NCBI GenBank assembly: GCA_963789815.1
Contig: CAWBMG010000013.1
Location: forward strand, 729,569-793,568
From: an uncultured Acidobacteriota bacterium
GTDB taxonomy: Bacteria > Acidobacteriota > Vicinamibacteria > Vicinamibacterales > UBA2999
Direction of reading: 5' to 3'
DNA length: 64,000 nt
Shown: piece by piece, positions 14,158-58,935 of the stretch
Position numbering within the stretch: the first letter of the stretch is position 1
Layout of the letters: the number at the start of each line of letters is the position of its first letter
Notes under the pieces: generated by a model
Seen by the model: only the letters and a program-made list of their open reading frames with translations
What the model was told of the DNA's origin: nothing
The model's database searches: none
Made by a program: the position numbers and the translations under genes

Positions 14158-14334
14158 CAACTCCCGATTCCCAATTCCCAACTTCCAAGCCAGATGAAAC
14201 CACACGCTCGAATGGAGGCAATGGGAGTTGGACGAGCGAACAATTGGGAGTTGGACGAGCGAGCAATTGGCAGTTGGACTAGCGAAGTAGTTGGGAGTTG
14301 GACAAGCGAAGTAGTTAGGAGTTGGGTGTGGGTG
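14158..14334. repeat. CCAACTCCC/GGGAGTTGG family element: short left arm plus 4.5 tandem 23-24-nt units
   Basis: Units GGGAGTTGGACGAGCGAACAATT (14223), GGGAGTTGGACGAGCGAGCAATT (14246), GGCAGTTGGACTAGCGAAGTAGTT (14269), GGGAGTTGGACAAGCGAAGTAGTT (14293) and AGGAGTTGGGTG (14317). The opposing CCCAATTCCCAACTTCC arm is at 14158-14190. Confidence 0.9.
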
Positions 14335-15140: not shown

Positions 15141-15259
15141 AGGGCTCAGGGCTCAGGGCTCAGGGCTCAAGGCTCAGGGCTCAGGGCTCAAGGCTCAGGG
15201 CTCAAGGCTCGGACTCACGGCTTAGCCGGCTTAAGCCCTGAGCCGTGAGCCCTCAAGCC
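15141..15259. repeat. GGGCTCAG/AAGGCTCAG tandem array with an opposing CCCTGAGCC arm (hairpin element)
   Basis: About 9 tandem 7-8-mers at 15141-15211, then GCTTAAGCCCTGAGCCGTGAGCCCTCAAGCC. Same motif as the in-frame repeat at 938-1012. Confidence 0.9.
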
Positions 15260-17509: not shown

Positions 17510-17608
17510 AACTCCCAACCACTATCGCTTGTCCAACTCCCAACTCCCAATTGCCTTCGAGCGTCCTTGGGAGTTGGGCCAGCGTCAGAAGTTGGGAGTT
17601 GGAAGTTA
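17510..17608. repeat. CCAACTCCC/GGGAGTTGG family inverted-repeat element
   Basis: CAACTCCCAACC...GTCCAACTCCCAACTCCCAATTG is opposed by CTTGGGAGTTGGG...GTTGGGAGTTGGAAGTT. Confidence 0.9.
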
Positions 17609-17624
17609 GAACATCGCGGTCGCT

Positions 17625-24666: not shown

Positions 24667-24698
24667 GACCTTCCCTGGGCGCGATCGCACTGACGATG

Positions 24699-25001
24699 GT
24701 CGGTGCGATCGCGCCGCTTGTCGGTGCAAATCTCCTAACGCGGTCGGTGCAATCGCACGGCTTGTCGGTGCAATCTGGCGCACGCGTGTTGGTGCAATTC
24801 CGCTGACGCTCGTCGGTGCAAGGCGAACCACTGACGCAGGTCGGTGCCATCTTGGCGCCGCGTGTCGGTGCGATCCGTCTCGCGTTTGGAGGTGCAATCC
24901 GGGTGCAATCGCGCAACTTGTCGGTGCTGTCCGACGTGGCATGTCGGTGCAAGCAGGCTGACGCCTGCTGGTGTAAGGGAACTAACGCTTGTCGGTGCCG
25001 C
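24699..25001 (+). repeat. tandem array of about 14 units, period 21-28 nt (two shorter), conserved core GTCGGTGCAAT
   Basis: Core starts at 24699, 24720, 24743, 24764, 24788, 24812, 24840, 24864, 24889, 24902, 24920, 24943, 24970 and 24991. The last unit encodes the final residues (GTDKR) of the adjacent gene. Confidence 0.95.
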
Positions 25002-25377
25002 GCTGCTTTCGGGCGACGTCCAGTCGATTGGCCCTGAGGCTGCCTATCGCGGCATACAGGCGGCGCGTCAGCGTTCGGATTGGGGCCAGTTCCTCTGCGG
25101 AGACGTAGCCCTTCAGCTGGGCGCTCCGCAGCGTGTCGGTCACCTCGTTCAGCGACCGGCGGGATACTTCCAAGAAGCGCGCGAACTCGCGCGGCGACTC
25201 GCACCCGAATCCCTCTGCAATATTGCGGCAGATCGAATCGATCGCGTCTTCGGCCTGGCCTCGATGTTTGAAGTCGCGTGAGAACTGTGGGCGCCGGGTG
25301 AACGCGAAAGCGGCAACTCTCAGCTCGTCGGCGAGCTGCCACGCGATGAGCTCCGTGTAGTGCCGCGCACCTGCCAT
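24982..25377 (-). CDS. four-helix-bundle protein (23S rRNA intervening-sequence protein family, PF05635/TIGR02436-like)
   Basis: YTELIAWQLADELRVAAFAF, AIDSICRNIAEGFG, REFARFLEVSRRSLNEVTDTL matches the family pattern (W-Q-x-A, NIAEG, F-L-x-x-S-x-x-S-x-x-E). Start could be M at 25377 or 25398. Confidence 0.8.
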   Translation of the reverse strand: MAGARHYTELIAWQLADELRVAAFAFTRRPQFSRDFKHRGQAEDAIDSICRNIAEGFGCESPREFARFLEVSRRSLNEVTDTLRSAQLKGYVSAEELAPIRTLTRRLYAAIGSLRANRLDVARKQRGTDKR

Positions 25378-25485
25378 ACGGAGGTGATGGCAGAACACAT
25401 GCCAATGGAACCGCGCGCTTCGTCAACAACTTGCGGCCACCATCGCGCAAAATCTCCAATCCCGCGGCGACCACGGTTGGCAGGT

Positions 25486-25716
25486 TTTGCACCAACAAGC
25501 GCTAGTTCAAATTGCACCGACCTGCGTCAGTGAATAGCACCGACAATTTGCAGGCTTGCACCGACAAGCAAGATAGATCGCACCGACGAGCAAGGTCAGC
25601 TTGCACAGTCTTCCGTCAGCCCGCTCGCACCGACATGCAACATCGGATCGCACCGACCAGCCGTGCGATTGCACCGACAAGTTGTGCGATCGCACCTGCT
25701 GCACGTCGGATCGCGC
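25486..25716 (-). repeat. tandem array of about 10 units of the same repeat in opposite orientation (ATTGCACCGAC on the plus strand)
   Basis: GCACCGAC-type cores at 25489, 25514, 25537, 25558, 25580, 25603, 25627, 25650, 25671 and 25692, spaced 21-25 nt. The array ends 1 nt before the MFS stop codon. Confidence 0.95.
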
Positions 25717-32247: not shown

Positions 32248-32255
32248 TCGTGACA

Positions 32256-32335
32256 AATCCCAACTCCCAACTCCCAATTCCCAAAAGTCGGGGTGGGCCC
32301 TGCTTGGGCGTTGGAGGTTGGAAGTTGGGAGTTGC
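32256..32335. repeat. CCAACTCCC/GGGAGTTGG family inverted-repeat element
   Basis: AATCCCAACTCCCAACTCCCAATTCCC is opposed by GGAGGTTGGAAGTTGGGAGTTGCC. Confidence 0.9.
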
Positions 32336-35267: not shown

Positions 35268-35372
35268 GATTTACGAATCGACGAATTTACGTATTTACGA
35301 ATTGATTGGAGAATTCGCCAGCGACGCATTTCATCGCGATTCGACGATTCGTAGATTCGTCAATTCGTCAAT
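35268..35372. repeat. ACGAAT/ATTCGT family inverted-repeat element overlapping the 3' end of the TPR-like gene
   Basis: TTACGAATCGACGAATTTACGTATTTACGAATTG is opposed by CGATTCGACGATTCGTAGATTCGTCAATTCGTCAAT. Confidence 0.85.
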
Positions 35373-41315: not shown

Positions 41316-42593
41316 ATGGATATGGTCGATCGCGTTAAGAAGATCTGCCTTTCGCCGCAGACCGAGTGGTCCGTGATTGCCACGGAGACCACGCCGACGG
41401 CGAGCCTGATTACGGGTTACGTTCTGCCGCTCGCGGGCGTCGGTGCCGTTGCCGGACTCATCGGACGGTCCCTCATCGGAATGAGCCTACCGTTCATAGG
41501 GACCTACCGCACGCCGCTCGGCACCGGACTCGCACTCGCGTTGTTCGCCCTTGTCAGCGCGGTCATCGGCGTCTTCTTGATTTCGATAATCATCAATGTC
41601 TTGGCGCCGAATTTCAGCGCCGAGAAGAATAGCGACCAGGCCATGAAAGTGGCGGTGTACTCGTTCACACCGGCATGGGTCGCAGGCATATTCCAGATCC
41701 TGCCGGCGCTCGGGATCCTCGCCATCCTTGGCGCACTGTACGGCCTCTACCTGCTGTACCTCGGTCTTCCACGACTGATGAAGTGTCCCGAGGACAAGGC
41801 CATTGGCTACACAGCCGTCGTCGTGATCTGCGCCATCGTGGTGAGCGTGGTTCTCGGCGCTGTCAGCGCCGCGATTGTCGGCACAGGCATGGTGGCCTCG
41901 GGCGGGCTGACGGGTGCGCTCGGCGGGATCACCGGCGGCGCGGTCGGCGGTTCGGTGGCGTCGAGTCCAGAGCTTCAGGTCGACCCGAATAGCACGCTCG
42001 GCAAGTTGCAACAGCTCGGCAAAGGGCTCGAGGAGAGCGCAAAGAAGGCCGAGGCGGCGGAGAAGCGCGGCGACACGAATGCACAGGTGGCGGCGGGCCT
42101 TGAAGGACTCGGCGCGCTCCTTGGTGGGGGCAAGCGAGTCGATCCCATCGACATCGCCCTGCTGAAGCCACTCGTGCCCGACACATTCGCGGGTCTTCCC
42201 AAGACGAGCAGCAGCGCGGAGAAAACCGGCATGGGCATCATCATGGTGTCGAAAGCCGAAGCGACCTACGGTGATGGTGCCGAACGGCAAGTCACGCTCG
42301 AGATCACCGACACGGGCGGTGTGAGCGGCTTGATGGGACTCGCCAGCTGGATGGGCGTGCAGGAAGACAAGGAAAACAGCGACGGGTACGAGCGAACGCA
42401 AAAAGTGGACGGACGTTTGACCCACGTCAGGAGCTCCAAGAGCGGCGACGACGAGTTCGCGGTCGTCATCGGTGAGCGCTTCATGGTCGGCGCCAAGAGC
42501 CGATCGCTTGACGTGAATGCGTTGAGGACCGCGGTGGCCGGACTCGACCTTGGCAAGCTGGAAGCGATGAAGGATGTGGGAGCGCAGAAATAG
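41316..42593 (+). CDS. Yip1-domain membrane protein with a long C-terminal soluble extension
   Basis: ICLSPQTEWSVIATE N-terminus and five TM segments typical of Yip1/DUF1282. Roughly 210 aa of hydrophilic C-terminus. Confidence 0.75.
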   Translation: MDMVDRVKKICLSPQTEWSVIATETTPTASLITGYVLPLAGVGAVAGLIGRSLIGMSLPFIGTYRTPLGTGLALALFALVSAVIGVFLISIIINVLAPNFSAEKNSDQAMKVAVYSFTPAWVAGIFQILPALGILAILGALYGLYLLYLGLPRLMKCPEDKAIGYTAVVVICAIVVSVVLGAVSAAIVGTGMVASGGLTGALGGITGGAVGGSVASSPELQVDPNSTLGKLQQLGKGLEESAKKAEAAEKRGDTNAQVAAGLEGLGALLGGGKRVDPIDIALLKPLVPDTFAGLPKTSSSAEKTGMGIIMVSKAEATYGDGAERQVTLEITDTGGVSGLMGLASWMGVQEDKENSDGYERTQKVDGRLTHVRSSKSGDDEFAVVIGERFMVGAKSRSLDVNALRTAVAGLDLGKLEAMKDVGAQK

Positions 42594-42704
42594 ATCATTG
42601 ATGATCGATGATTGATGATCGATGATATTGATTGATGATCGATGATATTGATTGAGACGTCGATGACAATCATCGTTCATCAATCATCGTTCATCGATGA
42701 TTTT
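42594..42704. repeat. GATGATCGATGA family element (tandem roughly 20-nt units, then the opposing ATCATCG arm)
   Basis: GATGATCGATGATATTGATT appears twice plus partial units at 42594-42655. This is opposed by CAATCATCGTTCATCAATCATCGTTCATCGATGA. Confidence 0.9.
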
Positions 42705-42706
42705 TC

Positions 42707-42850
42707 TTAGCCGTTCGGTGCGACGCGCCGAAGATTTGAGCCAGTTCTTCTGCGTCGAACAAGCTGAGTGTCTGGCAGTCCTTGGATAAATCGAATGGAG
42801 AGGTCTGCGAACGCATCCGTGCGATTTTGAAGCTCGTCGGCTTTGCTCAT
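42707..42850 (-). pseudogene. truncated remnant of a four-helix-bundle (IVS-protein family) gene
   Basis: MSKADELQNRTDAFADLSIRFIQGLPDTQL matches the family N-terminal pattern L-x-x-R-T-x-x-F-A-x-x-x-I-x(5)-L-P-x-T. It then degenerates and stops after 48 codons at the repeat array. Codon GC3 is weak, and the region is visibly lower in GC than its neighbours. Confidence 0.4.
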
Positions 42851-42981
42851 GCCGAGAAGCAGGCAACGCAAATGCCAGACAGTCGGAGCAACCTGAAACC
42901 GTGCGATCACTCACCGATTCAAGGATGATGCGATCCCCCAATGCTCCGATGTCGCAATCAATGCTCAAATCATGCGGTTCC

Positions 42982-43030
42982 CGATCATCAATTCTTCAAT
43001 CATCAATCATCGTTCATCGATCATCGATGG
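42982..43030. repeat. ATCATCG/GATGAT family array (single orientation)
   Basis: GATCATCAATTCTTCAATCATCAATCATCGTTCATCGATCATCGATG read directly. Confidence 0.85.
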
Positions 43031-43035
43031 TTCCC

Positions 43036-44379
43036 TCAGTCTGGCAACTCCGCCGTTTGGGGCTCCGGTAACCAGAAGCTGGCGATGACGCCGATGACGT
43101 AGGCGATTGTCCCCACAACCGCACAAGCGTACGCCAGCCGGATCGGCAGGGAGCCGCCCGGCATCGACGTCACGAGCGACGTGGTCACGAGCGCGGCGCA
43201 GGTGCCAATCATCCTGCCTCCGACATTGGCCGCGAAGCTCTCACCAGTGCCGCGCAAGTGCGTCGGATAGACGCGGGGCAGATAGTTGCCCCAGAAGCTG
43301 AACTGCGCGATCGTTGCCAACCCCACAAGGAAAATCCCCCACTGCGCCATCGTAAGCCCCATGCTCGGGGTGAGCAAGAACACGATCGGAAGGAACACGA
43401 GTCCTGGGATCTGGAAGACATAGAGCAGCCGGCGACGGCCGACGATGATAGTGGCGAGCGCGGCGAGGATGACGCGGCCAGCCAACCCGCCGAATTCCTG
43501 ATAGGAGGACACGCCGCTGATCGTCTGCTCTCTCGCGACGCGGTCCAAGCCCCGCACTTCCTCGAGGCCCGGGATGATGCGGGGCATCTGCTGGATCGCT
43601 CCGAATGCCGCGGCGTAGGCGCACGCCATCATCACGGTCGTCACGATCGTCGTCCGTCGGAACTCCGGCGTGAACAAAGCGGCGAAGCTGGGGCGCTTCA
43701 GCGTGCCTGCCTTCTTCTTCAATTGCCACGTTGGAGAGTCGGGCAGAAACGGGCGGATGACGATCAGTGGGATCGCCGGAATGATTCCCGACATCAGCGT
43801 GTAACGCCACGCGACCTGCTCTCCGTGGATGAACGGGAACGACTGCTCGTAGGTGACGATCAGGTAGTACGCGCCGGCGACCATGATTCCGCCGAACGAG
43901 CCGAACGCCTGCGTGTAGCCGATGACCCGCTCTCTCAGCTTCGGATCCGGGAACAATTCCGCCAGCCAGGCTACGGCAGCGACGAACTCTACGCAGACGC
44001 CGACGAACATGCAGCACCGCCAGAACAGGAGATGCCAGACTGTCGTCGAGTAGCCAGCAAAGAATGCGGAAAAAGCATAGAGCAGGATGCTCCAGACGAG
44101 CACGCGGCGTCGGCCGAAGAGGTCAGTCAGGTAACCGCCGAGCAAGCCAAAGATGCCGCCTGCGACTGCTGGCACCCACTGCATCCAGCTGACCCAGTCG
44201 TTTACGAGCAGACTGTCCGGCGCGACGGCGAGCAGTTCGGACAGCGCCGGCCGAACGATGAGCGGCAGCATCAGCAGCGTGTAGGAGTCGAAAGCGAACC
44301 CGATTCCGGCGATGATGCAGATGAGCCACTGCACCGGGGTGATGGCCGAGGTCTTGTGAGTGCTCTGTGGGTCCGCCAT
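43036..44379 (-). CDS. MFS transporter
   Basis: 447 aa, about 12 TM segments, with DLFGRRRVL between TM2 and TM3. Confidence 0.85.
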   Translation of the reverse strand: MADPQSTHKTSAITPVQWLICIIAGIGFAFDSYTLLMLPLIVRPALSELLAVAPDSLLVNDWVSWMQWVPAVAGGIFGLLGGYLTDLFGRRRVLVWSILLYAFSAFFAGYSTTVWHLLFWRCCMFVGVCVEFVAAVAWLAELFPDPKLRERVIGYTQAFGSFGGIMVAGAYYLIVTYEQSFPFIHGEQVAWRYTLMSGIIPAIPLIVIRPFLPDSPTWQLKKKAGTLKRPSFAALFTPEFRRTTIVTTVMMACAYAAAFGAIQQMPRIIPGLEEVRGLDRVAREQTISGVSSYQEFGGLAGRVILAALATIIVGRRRLLYVFQIPGLVFLPIVFLLTPSMGLTMAQWGIFLVGLATIAQFSFWGNYLPRVYPTHLRGTGESFAANVGGRMIGTCAALVTTSLVTSMPGGSLPIRLAYACAVVGTIAYVIGVIASFWLPEPQTAELPD

Positions 44380-45658: not shown

Positions 45659-45788
45659 CAACTCCCAACTTCCAACTACTGGCGCTTGACCAACTCCCAA
45701 TGGCGCTTGACCAACTCCCAACTCAATTCGAATCAGAGCGAAGGGTTTTGGAGTTTTTGGAAGTTGGCAATTTGGGAGTTGGGAGTTA
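45659..45788. repeat. CCAACTCCC/GGGAGTTGG family inverted-repeat element with internal 21-nt tandem
   Basis: TGGCGCTTGACCAACTCCCAA appears twice, opposed by TTGGAAGTTGGCAATTTGGGAGTTGGGAGTT. Confidence 0.9.
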
Positions 45789-47318: not shown

Positions 47319-48629
47319 ATGAAGATCCTCTCGATTACGGCGGGCGCGGCGGGGATGTACTGCGGGAGTTGTTTTCGGGACAATGCGCTCGCCGCCGAGC
47401 TGATGTCGCGGGGCCACGACGTCACGCTTGTCCCCGTTTACACGCCGACGCGCACGGACGAGCCCAACGTGAGCCAGCGTCGCGTGCTCTTTGGCGGCAT
47501 CAGCGTGTACCTGCAGCAGCATTCTCGCTTGTTCCGGCGGCTGCCGCGCGTCGTGGATCGAATGTGGGACGCCCCCGGCGTCATCAAGGCATTTGCCAAC
47601 CGGTCGGCCACGACCGACCCGACGCTGCTCGGCGATCTCACGATCTCCACGCTGCAGGGCAAAGACGGCGTCCTTGGCCGCGAGTTCGAGAAGCTCGCGG
47701 AGTGGATGCGGGACGAGCCTGTGCCAGACGTCATCAACCTCCCGAACTCGATGCTCATCGCCCTGGCGGCGCCGCTGCGTGAAGCCTTCGGACGCCCGGT
47801 GTGCTGCACGCTCCAGGGCGAAGAGCTGTTCTTGAACGGCTTGCACTCGCCCTATCGTGAACGCGCCATTGAGTTGATCCGCAGTCACGTACCACACGTC
47901 GACCGCTTCATCGCCGTCAGCGACTACTGCGCCAGGTTCATGGCCGAGTTCCTTCGCATCCCCGAACGCCGCATCTCGGTCGTGCCACTCGGCATCAATG
48001 TCGCCGGCTACGAGCGACGCCAGAGCGAGAGCGACACGTTCCGCGTCGGCTACTTCGCCCGTGTCTCGCCGGAGAAGGGCTTGCATGTGCTGGCCGACGC
48101 GTACGTCCGACTCCGGCAGCGCGCACCGAAGGCGCGAATGCGACTGGATGCGGCCGGGTACATCTCGCCCGCGCAAGAAGGCTATTTGACCGACGTTCGC
48201 GGTGTGCTCGAGCGGGCGGGGCTGGGCGGAGAGTTCACCTATCGCGGCGAGATCGACCGGGCCCACAAGATCACGTTTCTTCAAGGCCTGGATGTGCTTT
48301 CGGTTCCCGCCACCTACGATGAGCCGAAGGGCATTTTCCTGCTGGAGGCGATGGCGTGCGGTGTCCCAGTCGTTCAGCCTCGGCGTGGCGCGTTTATCGA
48401 GATCGTCGAACGCACAGGTGGCGGCGTACTGGTGCGACCAGACGATCCAGCCAGTCTCGCGGACGCGTTGTACGATCTCGCGCAGGATCGCGTGAAGACG
48501 ACGGCGTTGGGCCAGCTCGCCTTCGACGCGGTGCACGCGCGCTACACGATCGCGAAATCCGCAGACGAGTTGCTCGACGTGTATCGTGGCGTTACATCAT
48601 CGATGATCGATGAACGAATGACCGGATGA
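47319..48629 (+). CDS. GT4-family glycosyltransferase (GT-B fold)
   Basis: MKILSITAGAAGMYCGSCFRDN N-terminus. C-terminal EPKGIFLLEAMACGVPVV (E-x7-E-type motif). Confidence 0.85.
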   Translation: MKILSITAGAAGMYCGSCFRDNALAAELMSRGHDVTLVPVYTPTRTDEPNVSQRRVLFGGISVYLQQHSRLFRRLPRVVDRMWDAPGVIKAFANRSATTDPTLLGDLTISTLQGKDGVLGREFEKLAEWMRDEPVPDVINLPNSMLIALAAPLREAFGRPVCCTLQGEELFLNGLHSPYRERAIELIRSHVPHVDRFIAVSDYCARFMAEFLRIPERRISVVPLGINVAGYERRQSESDTFRVGYFARVSPEKGLHVLADAYVRLRQRAPKARMRLDAAGYISPAQEGYLTDVRGVLERAGLGGEFTYRGEIDRAHKITFLQGLDVLSVPATYDEPKGIFLLEAMACGVPVVQPRRGAFIEIVERTGGGVLVRPDDPASLADALYDLAQDRVKTTALGQLAFDAVHARYTIAKSADELLDVYRGVTSSMIDERMTG

Positions 48630-48713
48630 AATCATCGATGAACGATGATCGATGATCGGATGATTTTTCATCGATGATTTGAGATCAATCATCGGTCATC
48701 GTTCATCGTTCAT
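48595..48713. repeat. GATGATCGATGA family element overlapping the glycosyltransferase 3' end
   Basis: CATCATCGATGATCGATGAACGAATGACC ... ATCATCGATGAACGATGATCGATGATCGGATGA ... CAATCATCGGTCATCGTTCATCGTTCAT. It encodes the terminal SSMIDERMTG of the GT. Confidence 0.9.
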
Positions 48714-48715
48714 AG

Positions 48716-49405
48716 ATGGGAAGTATGCTGACCGTCTCCAACCTCACCAAGCAGTACCCATCGCCCGCCGGGCCGCTGACCGTGCTCTCAGACGTGTCCC
48801 TGTCGCTGCAGCCAGGTGACGCGGCAGCGATCATGGGACCGTCGGGCAGCGGCAAGAGCTCGCTCCTCTACGTGCTCGGTGCGCTCGAACCGCCTTCCGC
48901 CGGGAGTGTCACGCTCGGAGGCGTCAACCCATTCGGCCTCCGCGCCACGGAGCTCGCTGATTTTCGCAATGCCAGGGTCGGTTTTGTTTTTCAGGACCAC
49001 TGCCTTCTCCCGCAGTGCTCGGTGCTCGAGAACGTGTTGGTCCCGACTCTGGTTGCGCGTGGTGCCGGTGGCGGAGCTGGAGAGGACGCGCGTCGCGCGC
49101 AGACGCTCGTCGAGCAAGTCGGCCTGACAGGGCGGAGCGACCATCGGCCAGGTCAGTTGTCGGGGGGCGAGCGGCAGCGCGTATCGGTGGCCCGCGCGCT
49201 CATTCGCCAGCCAGACCTCCTGTTGTGCGATGAGCCCACCGGGAATCTCGACCAGGCGTCGGCGTCCATCGTTGCGTCGCTCTTGCTGGACTTGCATCGG
49301 CAGCAGCGGAACATCCTGATCGTGGTGACGCACAGCGCGAAGCTGGCAGCGGAGTTCCCGATCCGGTTCGAGATCGTCGATTCGCATCTGCATCGAGTGT
49401 CGTGA
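48716..49405 (+). CDS. ABC transporter ATP-binding protein (LolD/MacB-type)
   Basis: Walker A GPSGSGKSS, signature LSGGERQR, Walker B LLLCDEPTGNLD, H-loop VTHS. Confidence 0.9.
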   Translation: MGSMLTVSNLTKQYPSPAGPLTVLSDVSLSLQPGDAAAIMGPSGSGKSSLLYVLGALEPPSAGSVTLGGVNPFGLRATELADFRNARVGFVFQDHCLLPQCSVLENVLVPTLVARGAGGGAGEDARRAQTLVEQVGLTGRSDHRPGQLSGGERQRVSVARALIRQPDLLLCDEPTGNLDQASASIVASLLLDLHRQQRNILIVVTHSAKLAAEFPIRFEIVDSHLHRVS

Positions 49406-51072: not shown

Positions 51073-54000
51073 ATGCTTCGTTTTCTCATTCTTCGCAGCC
51101 TGACCTACTACTGGCGCACGAACGTTGCCGTCGTTCTGGGCGTGGCCACGGCGGTGGCGGTTCTGGCAGGCGCGCTGCTCGTCGGTGAGTCGGTGCGGGG
51201 CAGCCTGCAGGACCTTGTCCTGCAACGGTTGGGTCGAACCGACATCGTCCTGACCTCCGCAGGGTTTTTCCGCGAACAGCTCGCGACAGATATCGAAACT
51301 CAATCGGAATTCCCAGCCACCTTCAGCGGTCTCAGCCCGCTCGTCATTGCTCAAGGAGTGGTCACGGCTCAAGAGAGCGGACGACGGGTGGGGCAAGTGT
51401 TGGTTTATGGGATCGACGACCGCTTCTGGCGGTTTCATGGAGTGAACGGCGTGTCAGGCCCCAGCGACCGCGAGGCTCTACTCAGCCCGGCGTTAGCCTC
51501 GCAGCTTCGTCTCGAGCAGAAGGACGCCGTTCTCGTCCGGGTGCAACGTCCAACCGACGTTCCCCTCGAGTCGCTCCATGGCCGCCGCGACGACGTGGGT
51601 CGCACGCTGCGCCTGATCGTTCGCGCCGTCGTCCCGACTGGCCTGCTTGGTGAGTTTTCCTTGGCGCCCCAGCAGGCCGACGTGAAGGCGGTGTTCGTGC
51701 CGCTGTCACGCCTTCAGCAGGAGCTCGAGGTCGAAGGGCGTGTGAACACGCTTCTTGTGGCAGCTCGCGCCGGCCGCGAAGCTGGCGCATCGGAGGCCTT
51801 CGAACTGCTCGTCAACGCGCGCGCCTCGCTCGAGGACGTCGGCCTGACCGTGCGCGCGCTCGAGGATCGTCATGCTCTCGTCGTGGGGTCGGCGGCAGGC
51901 GTGCTCGAAGACCGCCAGGCATCCGCGGTTCTACAGGCGCTCAGTGGCACCGGTATGAGCGGCCAACCACTGTTCACCTATCTCGCGAACACGATTCGAC
52001 TTGGAGGTGAAGAGGAAGGGGAGGAACGGGAGGCCAAGGAGAAAGAGGAAAGGGAGAAGGGGGAAAGGGGGAAGGGGGAAAGGGAGACGGAGAGCGAAGG
52101 CAGTCATGAGCTCCCATACTCGCTGGTCACGGCCATTGATCTGCGCGCCGTGTCCCCGTCGGTCTCGACGTCGCCTGATGCCGACGGCCGACCACCCATT
52201 CTGCTGAACACGTGGGCCGCTTCCGATCTCAAGGCTCGCCCGGGGGACGTGGTAACGATGACTTACTACGTGTGGGCAGAGCCCGGGCTACTCGTGACGC
52301 GCAACACCGAGTTTCACCTGGCCGGTGTCGTGCCGATTGAGGCCGCCGACCGTGACTTCGCACCGGCCTTTGCCGGCATCACGGACTCCGTCTCTCTTTC
52401 CGACTGGGACCCGCCCTTTCCGATCGACTTGCGTCGCGTTCGTCCCGCGGACGAGGACTATTGGAAGCGCTATCGCACGACGCCGAAGGCGTTTGTGCCT
52501 CTCGAAGTCGGCCAGCGGCTCTGGCGGTCGCGCTATGGCGCGCTCACATCCGTGCGCGTGACACCCGCGGCCGGCCAGTCGTTCGAGGACTCGCGGCAGG
52601 AACTCGCGACCCGGCTGCGAAGCGCGATCGATCCCGTATCGACTGGTATGGCCGTCCGTGCTGTGCGCGCAGACGGACTGACTGCCTCGCACGGCGCGAC
52701 GGACTTCGGCGCCTACTTCACCTATTTCAGCTTCTTTCTGGTGGTTTCAGCCCTGTTGCTCGCGGCGCTCTTCTTCAGGCTCGGCGTCGAACAGCGTGTG
52801 CGCGAGGTTGGCCTGCTTCGCGCAGTCGGGTTCGGTCCAAGGGCAGTCAGGCGGCTGTTCTTGGGAGAAGGCCTACTTCTCGCGATAGTCGGGAGCATGC
52901 TGGGAGTAGCCGGTGCGATCGCGTACGCCGGGTTGATGATGGCGGCCCTCAGGTCCTGGTGGGTGGATGCCGTTGGCACAACGTCACTCACGCTTCACAT
53001 CTCAGCGACGTCGCTGCTGACCGGTGCCGTCGGCGGCATCGCGGCCGCGGTTGTCTGCATCTGGTGGACGTTGCGGGCGCTTGGGCGCATTTCGGAACGG
53101 AGTCTCCTCGCCGGAAATGTGACACTCGACGACAACTTCCAACTTCCAACTTCCCAACTCCCAAGGAACCCAGCCACCCAGCTACCTAGCTATCTCGCTA
53201 TCCGCCAGCGGCGATTACTTCTCGCGACGATCGCGCTCGTCATCATCGGCATAGCGCTGCTGCTGTCTGCCGCGGCGGGCAGAGCGGCTCCGGCAGGGGC
53301 CTTCTTTGGCGCCGGCTCATCGCTTCTCGGCGCGGCGCTCTGTGTGAGTCTGTTCATGCTCCGGCGGCAGCCTCGACACCCAATCGAAGGGCGCGGCTGG
53401 CTTCCGGTTCTTCGTCTGGGCCTTCGAGGCGCCACGTATCGTCCCGGTCGTAGCGTCTTGTCGATTGCGGTGATCGCCTCGGCCACGTTCATCCTCATTT
53501 CCGTGGACGCCTTTCGACGCGACGGCCGGCTCGCCGATGGCGGCCGGCAGTCCGGCGTTGGTGGGTACTCCCTCATCGTCGATACGCTGCTCCCCGTGGT
53601 CAACGACCCCAACACAATCGAGGGTCGCAACGCGCTGAGCCTCTCGGCCCTGGACGCCGCCGTCACCATCGAGCCGTTCCGCCTACTGCCCGGAGACGAT
53701 GCGAGCTGTTTGAATTTGTACGAGCCGACGAACCCGCGCATTCTGGCGGCGCGCGACCGGTTCATCGATGACGGACGCTTCGTGTTCAGCGACTCCCTTG
53801 CCTCGAGTGGTGCGGAACGGGCGAATCCATGGCTGTTGTTGCGGCGTCGCGAAACCGACGGCGCGATTCCCGTAGTCGCCGATGCCAACTCGATGACGTA
53901 CGTCCTCCACCGCCAACTGGGCCAAGACATCGTCCTGCGGCGCGGGACAGGAGAAGTGCGTTTGCGACTCGTTGGCGCATTGCGCGACAGCATCTTCCAG

Positions 54001-54576
54001 GGAGAGCTGTTGATGTCGGAGTCCAATTTCCTGCGCGTGTTCCCGGAGCAAGAGGGTTATCGGGTGCTGCTGGTCGAAGACCGAATGGGACGAACCGATG
54101 AGGTGGCGAGAACGATCGAGGGAGCGTTGTTGGATCTTGGAGCCGACGCGACGGGGACAGGCGAGCGCCTGGCTCAGTTTCACAGGGTCGAGAACACGTA
54201 TCTGTCCACGTTTCAGACGCTCGGAGGCCTGGGGCTGTTGCTCGGTACGGTTGGGCTTGCGGCGGTCCTTCTTCGTAACGTGCTGGAGCGGCGTCGAGAG
54301 CTGGCGCTGCTCGGCGCCGTCGGTTATCGTCGAAGTCACTTCACGTCAATGATCGTGGTTGAGAACATGCTCCTTGTCGGCTGCGGCCTCGTCTCAGGGG
54401 CATCGTGTGCATTGTTGGCGATTGCGCCTGCCGCGGCAGAACGGGGCAGCGCGCCATTCACGACTGGCGCTGCGCTGTTGCTGGTTGGTGTGATGGCGAC
54501 TGGGCTGCTCGCATCGATCGTCGCGATTCGTGCCGCGATCCACGCGCCGCTTCTCGAGTCGCTGAGGTCTGAGTAG
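51073..54576 (+). CDS. large ABC transporter permease with duplicated FtsX-type domains
   Basis: Start at [44 protein letters not shown]. Two TM4 bundles are separated by large periplasmic domains. Contains two repeat-derived in-frame insertions. Confidence 0.8.
   Translation: [1167 protein letters not shown]
52003..52100 (+). repeat. 98-nt polypurine tract inside the permease CDS encoding [33 protein letters not shown]
   Basis: I counted 6 pyrimidines in 98 nt. GGGGAAAGG-type units are related to the GGAGGGAACGG intergenic family. Confidence 0.9.
53134..53200. repeat. CCAACTTCC/CCAACTCCC plus CCAGCTACCTAGCTA motifs read in frame inside the permease CDS
   Basis: AACTTCCAACTTCCAACTTCCCAACTCCCAAGGAACCCAGCCACCCAGCTACCTAGCTATCTCGCTATC encodes [23 protein letters not shown]. 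Confidence 0.9.
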
Positions 54577-54652
54577 CTAGGTTGCTAGGTAGCTGGGTAG
54601 CTGGGGTGTTTGGGAGTTGGACAAGAATTAGTTGGGAGTTGGGAGTTTCCGA
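54577..54652. repeat. TAGCTGGGTAGCT and GGGAGTTGG motif block
   Basis: GCTAGGTTGCTAGGTAGCTGGGTAGCTGGGG followed by TTTGGGAGTTGGACAAGAATTAGTTGGGAGTTGGGAGTT. Confidence 0.9.
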
Positions 54653-55921: not shown

Positions 55922-55925
55922 ATCA

Positions 55926-56010
55926 ATTCCCAACTCCCAAACGGCCCAACTCCCAAACAGCTTGGGAGTTCTTGGGCGTTGGACAAGCATGAGTTGGGAG
56001 TTGGGAGTTG
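55926..56010. repeat. CCAACTCCC/GGGAGTTGG family inverted-repeat element
   Basis: ATTCCCAACTCCCAAACGGCCCAACTCCCAAAC is opposed by CTTGGGAGTTCTTGGGCGTTGGACAAGCATGAGTTGGGAGTTGGGAGTTG. Confidence 0.9.
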
Positions 56011-58885: not shown

Positions 58886-58935
58886 CGCTCCCACTCCAAA
58901 ACTACTGACGCTTGACCAACTCCCAACTCCCAAAC
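58886..58935. repeat. CCAACTCCC family, single-orientation copy
   Basis: CTCCCACTCCAAAACTACTGACGCTTGACCAACTCCCAACTCCCAAAC. It shares the GCGCTTGACCAACTCCCAA unit with 45659-45788. Confidence 0.85.

Follow-up and report, generated by a model that had tools for sequence, protein, structure and literature searches.

Proteins of the S23p/TIGR02436 family have been known since the 1990s from intervening sequences of ribosomal RNA (rRNA) and are widespread; to our knowledge, no function has been assigned to them outside diversity-generating retroelements (DGRs). In this study, we analyzed a gap of ~440 bp in which the remains of such a gene lie among arrays of short tandem repeats. The gap is located between a Yip1-domain gene and a gene for a transporter of the major facilitator superfamily (MFS), in a 64,000-nt stretch of DNA from an uncultured Acidobacteriota bacterium (contig CAWBMG010000013.1 of assembly GCA_963789815.1; this whole stretch is hereafter called the window). 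It is highly probable that this island represents a decayed copy of a small module that is conserved among Vicinamibacteria-like Acidobacteriota. Taken by itself, the locus is an ordinary pseudogene. In related soil bacteria, intact copies lie between mirror-image runs of one short repeat, which points to a conserved unit of gene plus arrays.

The closest known analogue of this module is, as we judge by analogy, the intervening sequence (IVS) of 23S rRNA genes that bears an open reading frame (ORF). In Leptospira, Coxiella, and Xanthomonas, such an IVS has complementary ends that pair into a stem, with an S23p ORF in its loop; it interrupts the 23S rRNA gene at helix 9, 25, or 45, is excised by RNase III, measures a few hundred nt, has a GC content below that of the host, is patchily distributed, and has an ORF that is often decayed or unexpressed (PMC4990558). 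The window element resembles the IVS in protein family (PF05635/TIGR02436), in its similar size, in its lower GC content, in its patchy distribution, and in the decay of its ORF, and an enclosing stem is likewise predicted (minus-strand fold, z = -4.2), with upstream and downstream inverted repeats that exceed shuffles in ~29 of 48 related loci. However, it lies between protein-coding genes (Yip1 and MFS) and not in rRNA, which is the defining location of an IVS. Moreover, the stems of the module are made of tandem arrays of 7-24-nt units and not of unique inverted repeats, and the module has its own promoter-like element.

Another parallel is offered by the REP/RAYT systems, in which a transposase gene is flanked by inverted short repeats that also form hairpins in other intergenic regions, and in which the repeat family differs from one gene clade to another. 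The module likewise has its gene between inverted repeats, with a motif that varies with the clade. However, its protein is a small helical bundle without HUH/Y1 features, its gene belongs to TIGR02436 and matched no transposase family, its repeats form tandem arrays and not single palindromes, and its mobilisation is only a proposal. Tandem heptanucleotide repeats are known from heterocystous cyanobacteria as STRR. Further heptamers are TAACTGA in Beggiatoaceae (PMC4679880) and GGGACCG and MTYCTGA in Geobacter metallireducens (PMC2700814). Bacterial tandem heptamers share with the present arrays the 7-nt unit and the occupation of many sites, dozens of them between genes and some within genes, in part as hairpins; they differ in that no link to a four-helix-bundle gene and no clade-specific bracketing of a gene was found in the consulted parts of these two papers (PMC4679880, PMC2700814). 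Finally, the Avd protein of DGRs belongs to the same family and has a homologous four-helix-bundle fold (PMC10053308). The remnant, unlike Avd, has no adjacent reverse transcriptase and no template/variable repeats; its neighbours are Yip1 and MFS, and its repeats are simple tandem arrays. No prior description of TIGR02436, PF05635, or S23p together with repeats or sigma-54 was found in the searchable literature.

A broken TIGR02436 gene in the gap

The gap contains a minus-strand ORF of 47 codons (ATG at 42850, stop at 42707-42709), which corresponds to the remnant that a preliminary description of this DNA had placed there. When the 47-residue peptide was searched against 5.8 billion proteins, its first 33 residues matched two proteins of 77 residues each, P0001 and P0002, with 85% and 79% identity, respectively (E = 3.6e-8 and 2.7e-7), and both of these proteins exceeded the TIGR02436 cut-off (35 bits vs 24). 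Moreover, the N-terminus of the remnant was identical at 28 of 33 positions to the intact 121-aa protein of L057 (loci fetched for comparison are numbered with the prefix L). A different frame of the same DNA, LSLFDAEELAQIFGASHRTAKK, had been flagged earlier as a possible helix-turn-helix (HTH) fragment that made the identification insecure. This frame aligned to residues 98-120 of the L057 protein (17 of 23 identical); it thus represents the C-terminus of the same protein, and both reading frames belong to one broken gene.

A custom family hidden Markov model (HMM), built from 27 diverse relatives, was also searched against every stop-to-stop ORF of the window. The only matches were an intact paralogue at a second site, here called locus 1 (7e-29); an N-terminal fragment of 33 codons in the gap (MSKADELQNRTDAFADLSIRFIQGLPDTQLVRR, 42850-42752, minus strand; 2.2e-10, profile positions 1-34); and a C-terminal fragment of ~22 codons (~98-120) plus TGA in another frame (LFDAEELAQIFGASHRTAKKNHR, 42759-42691, minus strand; 7.9e-6, profile positions 98-119). 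The next best match in the window was 0.42, and no further paralogues emerged when the window was searched with a regular expression. On the strength of these alignments, the remnant is a minus-strand TIGR02436 pseudogene of a second sub-type, and the subfamily membership that had been claimed for it is upheld.

The preliminary description had proposed a search of the remnant frames with PF05635 and TIGR02436, and had named the absence of a significant hit as grounds for rejecting its reading. With the Pfam and NCBIfam models, no gap ORF gave a match at E ≤ 10, and a rejection on that ground would have been misleading: the general models miss the remnant because its fragments (33 and 22 residues) are too short. 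The remnant falls below the curated cut-offs of TIGR02436 and PF05635 and is homologous to members of the family. This lack of a match, together with weak, sub-threshold HTH matches of the L029 C-terminus, is what speaks for the view that the ORF and its similarity are due to chance, the gap holding either no gene remnant or an unrelated HTH fragment. To this view we give almost no credence. An E-value of 3.6e-8 in so large a protein collection, two collinear fragments that match both ends of one family profile, and an upstream leader and promoter-like element that are conserved in DNA as well all speak against it, and it was rejected on the basis of the protein search, the L029 and L057 alignments, and the custom HMM.

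The 77-codon ORF of L029 and L030 stops at an in-frame TGA located at the family's invariant Trp (EEADESVF-W-L). When read through, the L029 protein scored 49.6 bits with TIGR02436 (profile positions 4-107 of 109). As a query, it retrieved 482 relatives; the 120 of these 482 that were listed were 119-217 aa long, mostly ~120-140, and Trp was present at the TGA position in 15 of 15 relatives inspected by sequence. In the PDB, a search by sequence returned only 2RLD, an uncharacterised S23p-type protein.

Local DNA alignments of the window gene to L029 and L057 placed the N- and C-terminal matches back to back, with a deletion junction at a short direct repeat, CTTGYTCG (42751-42766, minus strand). 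Between the two fragments, ~200 bp (roughly codons 34-97) are absent and the frame is shifted, as seen in the DNA and protein alignments with both loci. The missing stretch comprises the ANYRAARRA and EEADES-W core of the family, and the remnant lacks the complete domain of ~110-130 residues with four helices and the ANYRxA and EEADE-x3-W core. The comparison shown here thus identifies the window gene as a pseudogene that arose by a frame-shifting deletion of ~200 bp between two short direct repeats. What survives in the window is the promoter-like element, the leader, 33 N-terminal codons, ~22 C-terminal codons, and the arrays.

The Yip1 gene (41316-42593, plus strand; PF04893, 69 bits) and the MFS gene (43036-44379, minus strand; PF07690, 93.5 bits) are convergent on the gap, with the MFS gene on the same strand as the remnant and upstream of it. 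GC content was 0.43-0.53 in the gap and ~0.62 in the flanks, in agreement with the low-GC non-coding island reported earlier. An intact copy of the gene was found beside a Yip1 orthologue in L057, a metagenome contig with the order small membrane ORF, GATGA hairpin plus leader, intact 121-codon gene, GATGA/TCATC arrays, and convergent Yip1 orthologue. The Yip1 proteins end in GLDLGKLEGMKDVGVQK in L057 and in GLDLGKLEAMKDVGAQK in the window, each followed by the stop codon. The comparison of synteny that had been suggested earlier thus holds on the Yip1 side, but the upstream neighbour of the gene is not the same (the small membrane ORF in L057, MFS in the window). We also compared 27 Yip1 loci from species-representative genomes, about half from Vicinamibacteria or other Acidobacteriota and the rest mostly from Burkholderiales, with Yip1 proteins at most 64% identical. 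Beside Yip1 in these 27 loci there was no four-helix-bundle gene, no heptamer array, and no MFS neighbour; the absence of the module there indicates a patchy distribution and has no bearing on the remnant.

Repeat arrays and the protein clades that they accompany

Arrays were located with TRF plus a repeat finder, which confirmed the three positions reported earlier. A GATGATY heptamer array (42594-42655; TRF periods 7, 14, and 20; TCATC on the remnant strand) forms the outer arm of a hairpin downstream of the remnant, and an ATCATCG array (42665-42704; GATGAA on the remnant strand) forms its inner arm, with the stop codon of the remnant in its first units. A second ATCATCG array (42982-43030; GATGA on the remnant strand) is the upstream array and begins 6 nt past the MFS stop. 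On the remnant strand, the order is therefore GATGA array, leader, remnant, GATGA array, loop, and TCATC array. The topology of arrays, ORF, and inverted arrays that had been proposed stands in part: ATCATC arrays in direct orientation are present on both sides, but an inverted partner exists on the Yip1 side only. The upstream array is a direct repeat of 42667-42702 (D1, 83%) and forms inverted repeats with 42590-42626 (I2 and I3, 83-87%), and the array at 42594-42655 has an inverted repeat (I1) of 42 nt with 83% complementarity. When at most one mismatch was allowed, the window contained 16 copies of the 12-mer GATGATCGATGA where 0.5 would be expected, and none of 100 shuffles reached 16; 10 of the 16 copies are in the gap. 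In the GATGA clade described below, the gene ends in the downstream array, whose first GATGA unit provides its stop codon (...CGA TGA; 42691-42704 in the window, ~925-935 in L029, and 928-940 in L057); gene and array thus physically overlap.

On the plus strand, a single long hairpin is formed by 42592-42704 (-58.6 kcal/mol, z = -5.8). Its first nucleotide is the penultimate one of the Yip1 stop codon, and TTTTTCTT follows directly at 42702-42709. This hairpin has the features of an intrinsic terminator, namely a stable hairpin and then a T-run past a stop codon, with a stem that is unusually long and AT-rich for a terminator. In the minus-strand fold of the whole 453-nt gap, 43030-42982 pairs with 42655-42594 and encloses the remnant (z = -4.2).

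The association of the gene with arrays was then followed across loci. Copies that share at least ~70% identity with the clade consensus, here called the GATGA clade, were found in three characterised neighbourhoods and on contigs with other neighbours. The majority lie in the order ArgRS - GATase(C26) - gene - TrmA-like; others lie between AlaRS or sigma-70 and PepSY_TM, or beside Yip1, and still others (L048/L049, L050, L054, and L060) have different neighbours. In the 250-nt flanks of these genes, GATGA/TCATC-type pentamers mostly reached ~2-8 (up to 11) per 100 nt, as compared with 0.3-1.0 in the rest of the contig. Almost all flanks in the clade were enriched in this way, and a few were near background, such as the downstream flank of L029. 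Other tandem arrays in nine GATGA-clade contigs had unrelated motifs (CAACTCC, ACCGTCGA, AGGTGCAAA, and CCGAATC).

In more distant clades, other motifs were found (GTCGGTGCAA, ATTGCCAAA, and CGGGTAAT), again with upstream and downstream arrays in inverted orientation; in relatives at 38-69% identity, the two are reverse complements of each other. In L103/L104, six upstream copies of CGGGTAAT face seven downstream copies of TTACCCGA; in L094/L096, ATTGCCAAA is upstream and TTTGGCAAT downstream. The corresponding pairs are AATTGCCAT and TGGCAATCA in L092, ATTGCCGA and TCGGCAAT-type units in L077, and ATTTGAG-type units and CTCAAATT in L067. Besides the GATGA clade and the clade of locus 1 (see below), at least 6 pairs of clade and motif were observed, and the upstream/downstream inverted-repeat score was above that of every shuffle in ~29 of 48 related loci.

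Locus 1 of the window is itself an intact paralogous module (24698-25696, minus strand), with a four-helix-bundle gene at 24982-25377 that matched TIGR02436 with 64.5 bits and PF05635 with 69 bits. On both sides of this gene are GTCGGTGCAA-type 21-24-mers in inverted orientation, 17 copies in total, and none was found elsewhere in the window above chance. In other genomes, homologues of locus 1 have GTCGGTGCRA arrays before the gene and the same arrays in reverse complement after it. Two of them, L109 and L110, which are 66-70% identical and have other neighbours, have 11-15 copies of the GTCGGTGCAA unit upstream of the gene and 7-9 of its complement downstream. Taken together, the comparisons shown here indicate that the array motif follows the protein clade and not the gene neighbourhood. 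The cassette-like association of gene and arrays that had been suggested earlier is thereby borne out for the GATGA clade, for the GTCGGTGCRA arrays, and for the further clade motifs.

Leader, promoter-like element, and proposed organization of the module

Between the upstream array and the remnant lies a leader of degenerate TCATYG repeats (42905-42981, minus strand) with the motif GCATTGATTGC at 42954-42964. It aligns upstream of the gene in L029, L031, L035, L042, and L057, and the motif GCATTKATTGC is common to the leaders of GATGA-clade loci. The leader alone (42905-42981) folded no better than shuffles. A sigma-54-type -24/-12 element, TGGCATTTGCGTTGCC, follows at 42862-42877 (minus strand), 12 nt before the ATG. 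The sigma-54 consensus is TGGCAC-N5-TTGC, and the window element agrees with it in sequence and spacing, with the GG and GC dinucleotides 10 nt apart. In 21 of 29 clade members, GG[CT]A-N6-7-T[TG]GC is located at -26 to -28 and ends 12-13 nt before the start codon, as compared with a background of 0.009 per 45 nt, and most of the remaining loci have near matches. The same element precedes distant-clade genes and locus 1 (~25390-25404, minus strand), and it was seen just upstream of four-helix-bundle start codons in, for example, L029, L031, L035, L041, L043, L057, L078, L103, L107, and L110. At locus 1, the element predicts the ATG that is used in public annotation (P0123, 131 aa). Its location 12-13 nt before the start codon predicts a leaderless transcript; TIGR02436 genes may thus be transcribed from a sigma-54 promoter as essentially leaderless mRNA.

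In the organization that we propose, an intact module would begin with a short array of GATGA-type heptamers, followed by the conserved leader (GCATTKATTGC and then degenerate TCATYG repeats), the putative sigma-54-type -24/-12 element at a distance of 12-13 nt from the start codon, a TIGR02436/PF05635 gene of 121-130 codons with its stop in the first downstream array unit, and, last, arrays that repeat those of the upstream side in reverse complement. Gene and arrays would be inherited, and occasionally relocated, as one unit, and the arrays may fold into long hairpins that insulate the module. In the window, the 113-nt hairpin and T-run past the Yip1 stop most likely now terminate Yip1 transcription, and the same hairpin may originally also have ended the four-helix-bundle transcript from the opposite side. 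The fixed architecture (a sigma-54-like promoter, a presumptive leaderless start, the gene, and clade-specific inverted arrays) occurs outside rRNA in soil Acidobacteriota and gives rise to testable hypotheses, namely that the protein binds the repeats around its gene, that processing by RNase III takes place, and that sigma-54 exerts control. The module also offers a handle on the origin of the abundant short-repeat hairpins in these genomes. For annotation, a low-GC "non-coding island" is explained as a pseudogene, a kind of remnant that general family models miss.

Relocation, decay, and arrays without the gene

Gene order differs between related loci: L029 has GATase - gene - amidohydrolase, and L031 has GATase - amidohydrolase - gene. 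Between L029 and L031, identity ranges from 79 to 87% for the three proteins (amidohydrolase, 87%). Furthermore, a segment of ~630 bp (~300-930 of L029), comprising the last ~100 nt of the GATase gene and the whole module, is nearly 100% identical between L029 and L030 and differs by one 19-nt repeat unit; the surrounding flanks and upstream GATase are 50-80% identical. This shared segment is either the product of a recent recombination or transfer, or an assembly chimera.

Several points weigh against the proposed module. Mobility is supported by few changes of context, the module includes no recombinase or other gene for mobility, and L030 is a 942-bp Logan contig that is possibly chimeric. 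Most copies are in one neighbourhood (ArgRS-GATase), which fits vertical descent. Arrays were enriched near the gene (3.9-fold, p = 5.5e-8), a figure that is confounded by the comparison of intergenic with mostly coding sequence and was kept out of the main evidence. About 15 array loci are present in the window, and 2 of them have a four-helix-bundle gene; a GATGA hairpin at 48596-48713 has none. The upstream half-hairpin of the window copy folded no better than shuffles. The sigma-54 assignment is read from sequence, and neither the window nor the fetched loci showed an RpoN-box or a GAFTGA signature. To these may be added the failure of the general family models to match the remnant.

The GATGA/TCATC hairpin at 48596-48713, detected by TRF and by its GATGATCGATGA count (6 of the 16 copies), contains no four-helix-bundle sequence by the custom HMM. 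It lies between co-directional genes: a glycosyltransferase ORF (47319-48629) ends inside the array (...SSMIDERMTG, then stop), and an ABC ATPase gene starts at 48716. Gene-less arrays are common in the window, and thus arrays can exist without the gene. This raises the alternative that the arrays are generic intergenic hairpins or terminators, and that the gene merely landed or survived in an array-bearing gap. The ~15 array loci in 64 kb, which lie mostly at gene ends and belong to several motif families, fit this alternative, as do the solitary hairpin between the glycosyltransferase and ABC ATPase genes, the plus-strand hairpin and T-run directly past the Yip1 stop codon, and the presence of some arrays inside ORFs. 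We nevertheless regard it as improbable, and it is already disfavoured. GATGA arrays track the clade in three characterised contexts and on other contigs, other arrays on the same contigs have different motifs, GTCGGTGCRA arrays accompany another clade into other genomes, the at least 6 further clade-motif pairs follow the same pattern, and the 27 Yip1 loci of other taxa have neither heptamer arrays nor the four-helix-bundle gene.

A different alternative would make TIGR02436 proteins the sequence-specific partners of their flanking arrays, with each clade recognising, maintaining, or spreading its own family of 7-24-nt repeats; we see an outside chance that this is so. Likened to RAYT/REP or to a centromere- or iteron-binding protein, the window copy would be a dead master gene and the 48.6-kb hairpin its offspring, a version that we hold to be just as doubtful. 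Avd binds nucleic acid. The family is related to Avd, the DGR accessory protein (PMC10053308); motif and clade co-vary, inverted copies of the repeat flank the gene, the same repeat occurs elsewhere without it, and the 21-24-nt period, conserved 10-nt core, and variable spacers of the GTCGGTGCAA clade may resemble tandem protein-binding sites. However, binding is purely hypothetical and a catalytic motif is absent from the family. The commonest repeat, CAACTCC (at least 8 loci), is without a four-helix-bundle gene in these 64 kb, and the co-variation could reflect common descent of the gene plus its flanks. If true, the partnership would explain the several hairpin-array motif families that pepper these acidobacterial genomes.

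The commonest array unit in the window is CAACTCC/GGAGTTG, and others are AGGGCTC and ATTTACGA; with the custom HMM, no four-helix-bundle remnant was found near the arrays of these motifs in the window. Arrays of 7-8-nt units occur as inverted pairs at gene ends at 941-1005, 14158-14325, 15141-15253, 17533-17611, and 32254-32334, and further such arrays are at 35269-35369, 45659-45787, 54569-54647, 55924-56010, and 58916-58933. Two in-frame arrays, of CAACTTC-type and GGAGAAGGGGGAAAG units, are located at 53133-53202 and 52012-52087 within an ORF for a permease with two FtsX domains (51073-54576). On the fetched contigs, ArgRS genes each have their own heptamer array (L035, 561-606; L041, 192-223; L043, 511-541), and the heptamers of these three arrays all differ (CAACTCC, CAAATCC, and CCGAATC).

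With regard to the gap itself, Rfam returned no rRNA or other family above threshold for 42400-43200, and sub-threshold matches of the gap hairpin to miRNA-precursor models were dismissed as generic hairpin matches. PADLOC found no defence-system family. Two short public Logan contigs with an identical Yip1 protein both stop ~100 bp past its stop codon, which suggests that short-read assemblies break within the GATGA array next to Yip1.

Most copies of the gene are intact and more conserved than their neighbours, and the protein is thus normally under selection. A minority are broken (L028, L029/L030, L060, L070, L076, L079, and L088), and the damage includes truncations and internal deletions like that of the window. 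An in-frame TGA at the invariant Trp codon is present in two sub-clades (L028, 979-981; L029, 779-781; L030, 738-740); beyond it, the remainder of the gene is still in frame in L029 and L030. Either the nonsense mutation arose in parallel or a more unusual process, for example read-through, is involved. In L088 (1016-1190), the copy is cut after codon 58 and the promoter-like element is mutated, with TTGT for TTGC. In L070 (916-1634), two convergent four-helix-bundle copies lie 140 bp apart, the first of which has an in-frame internal deletion.

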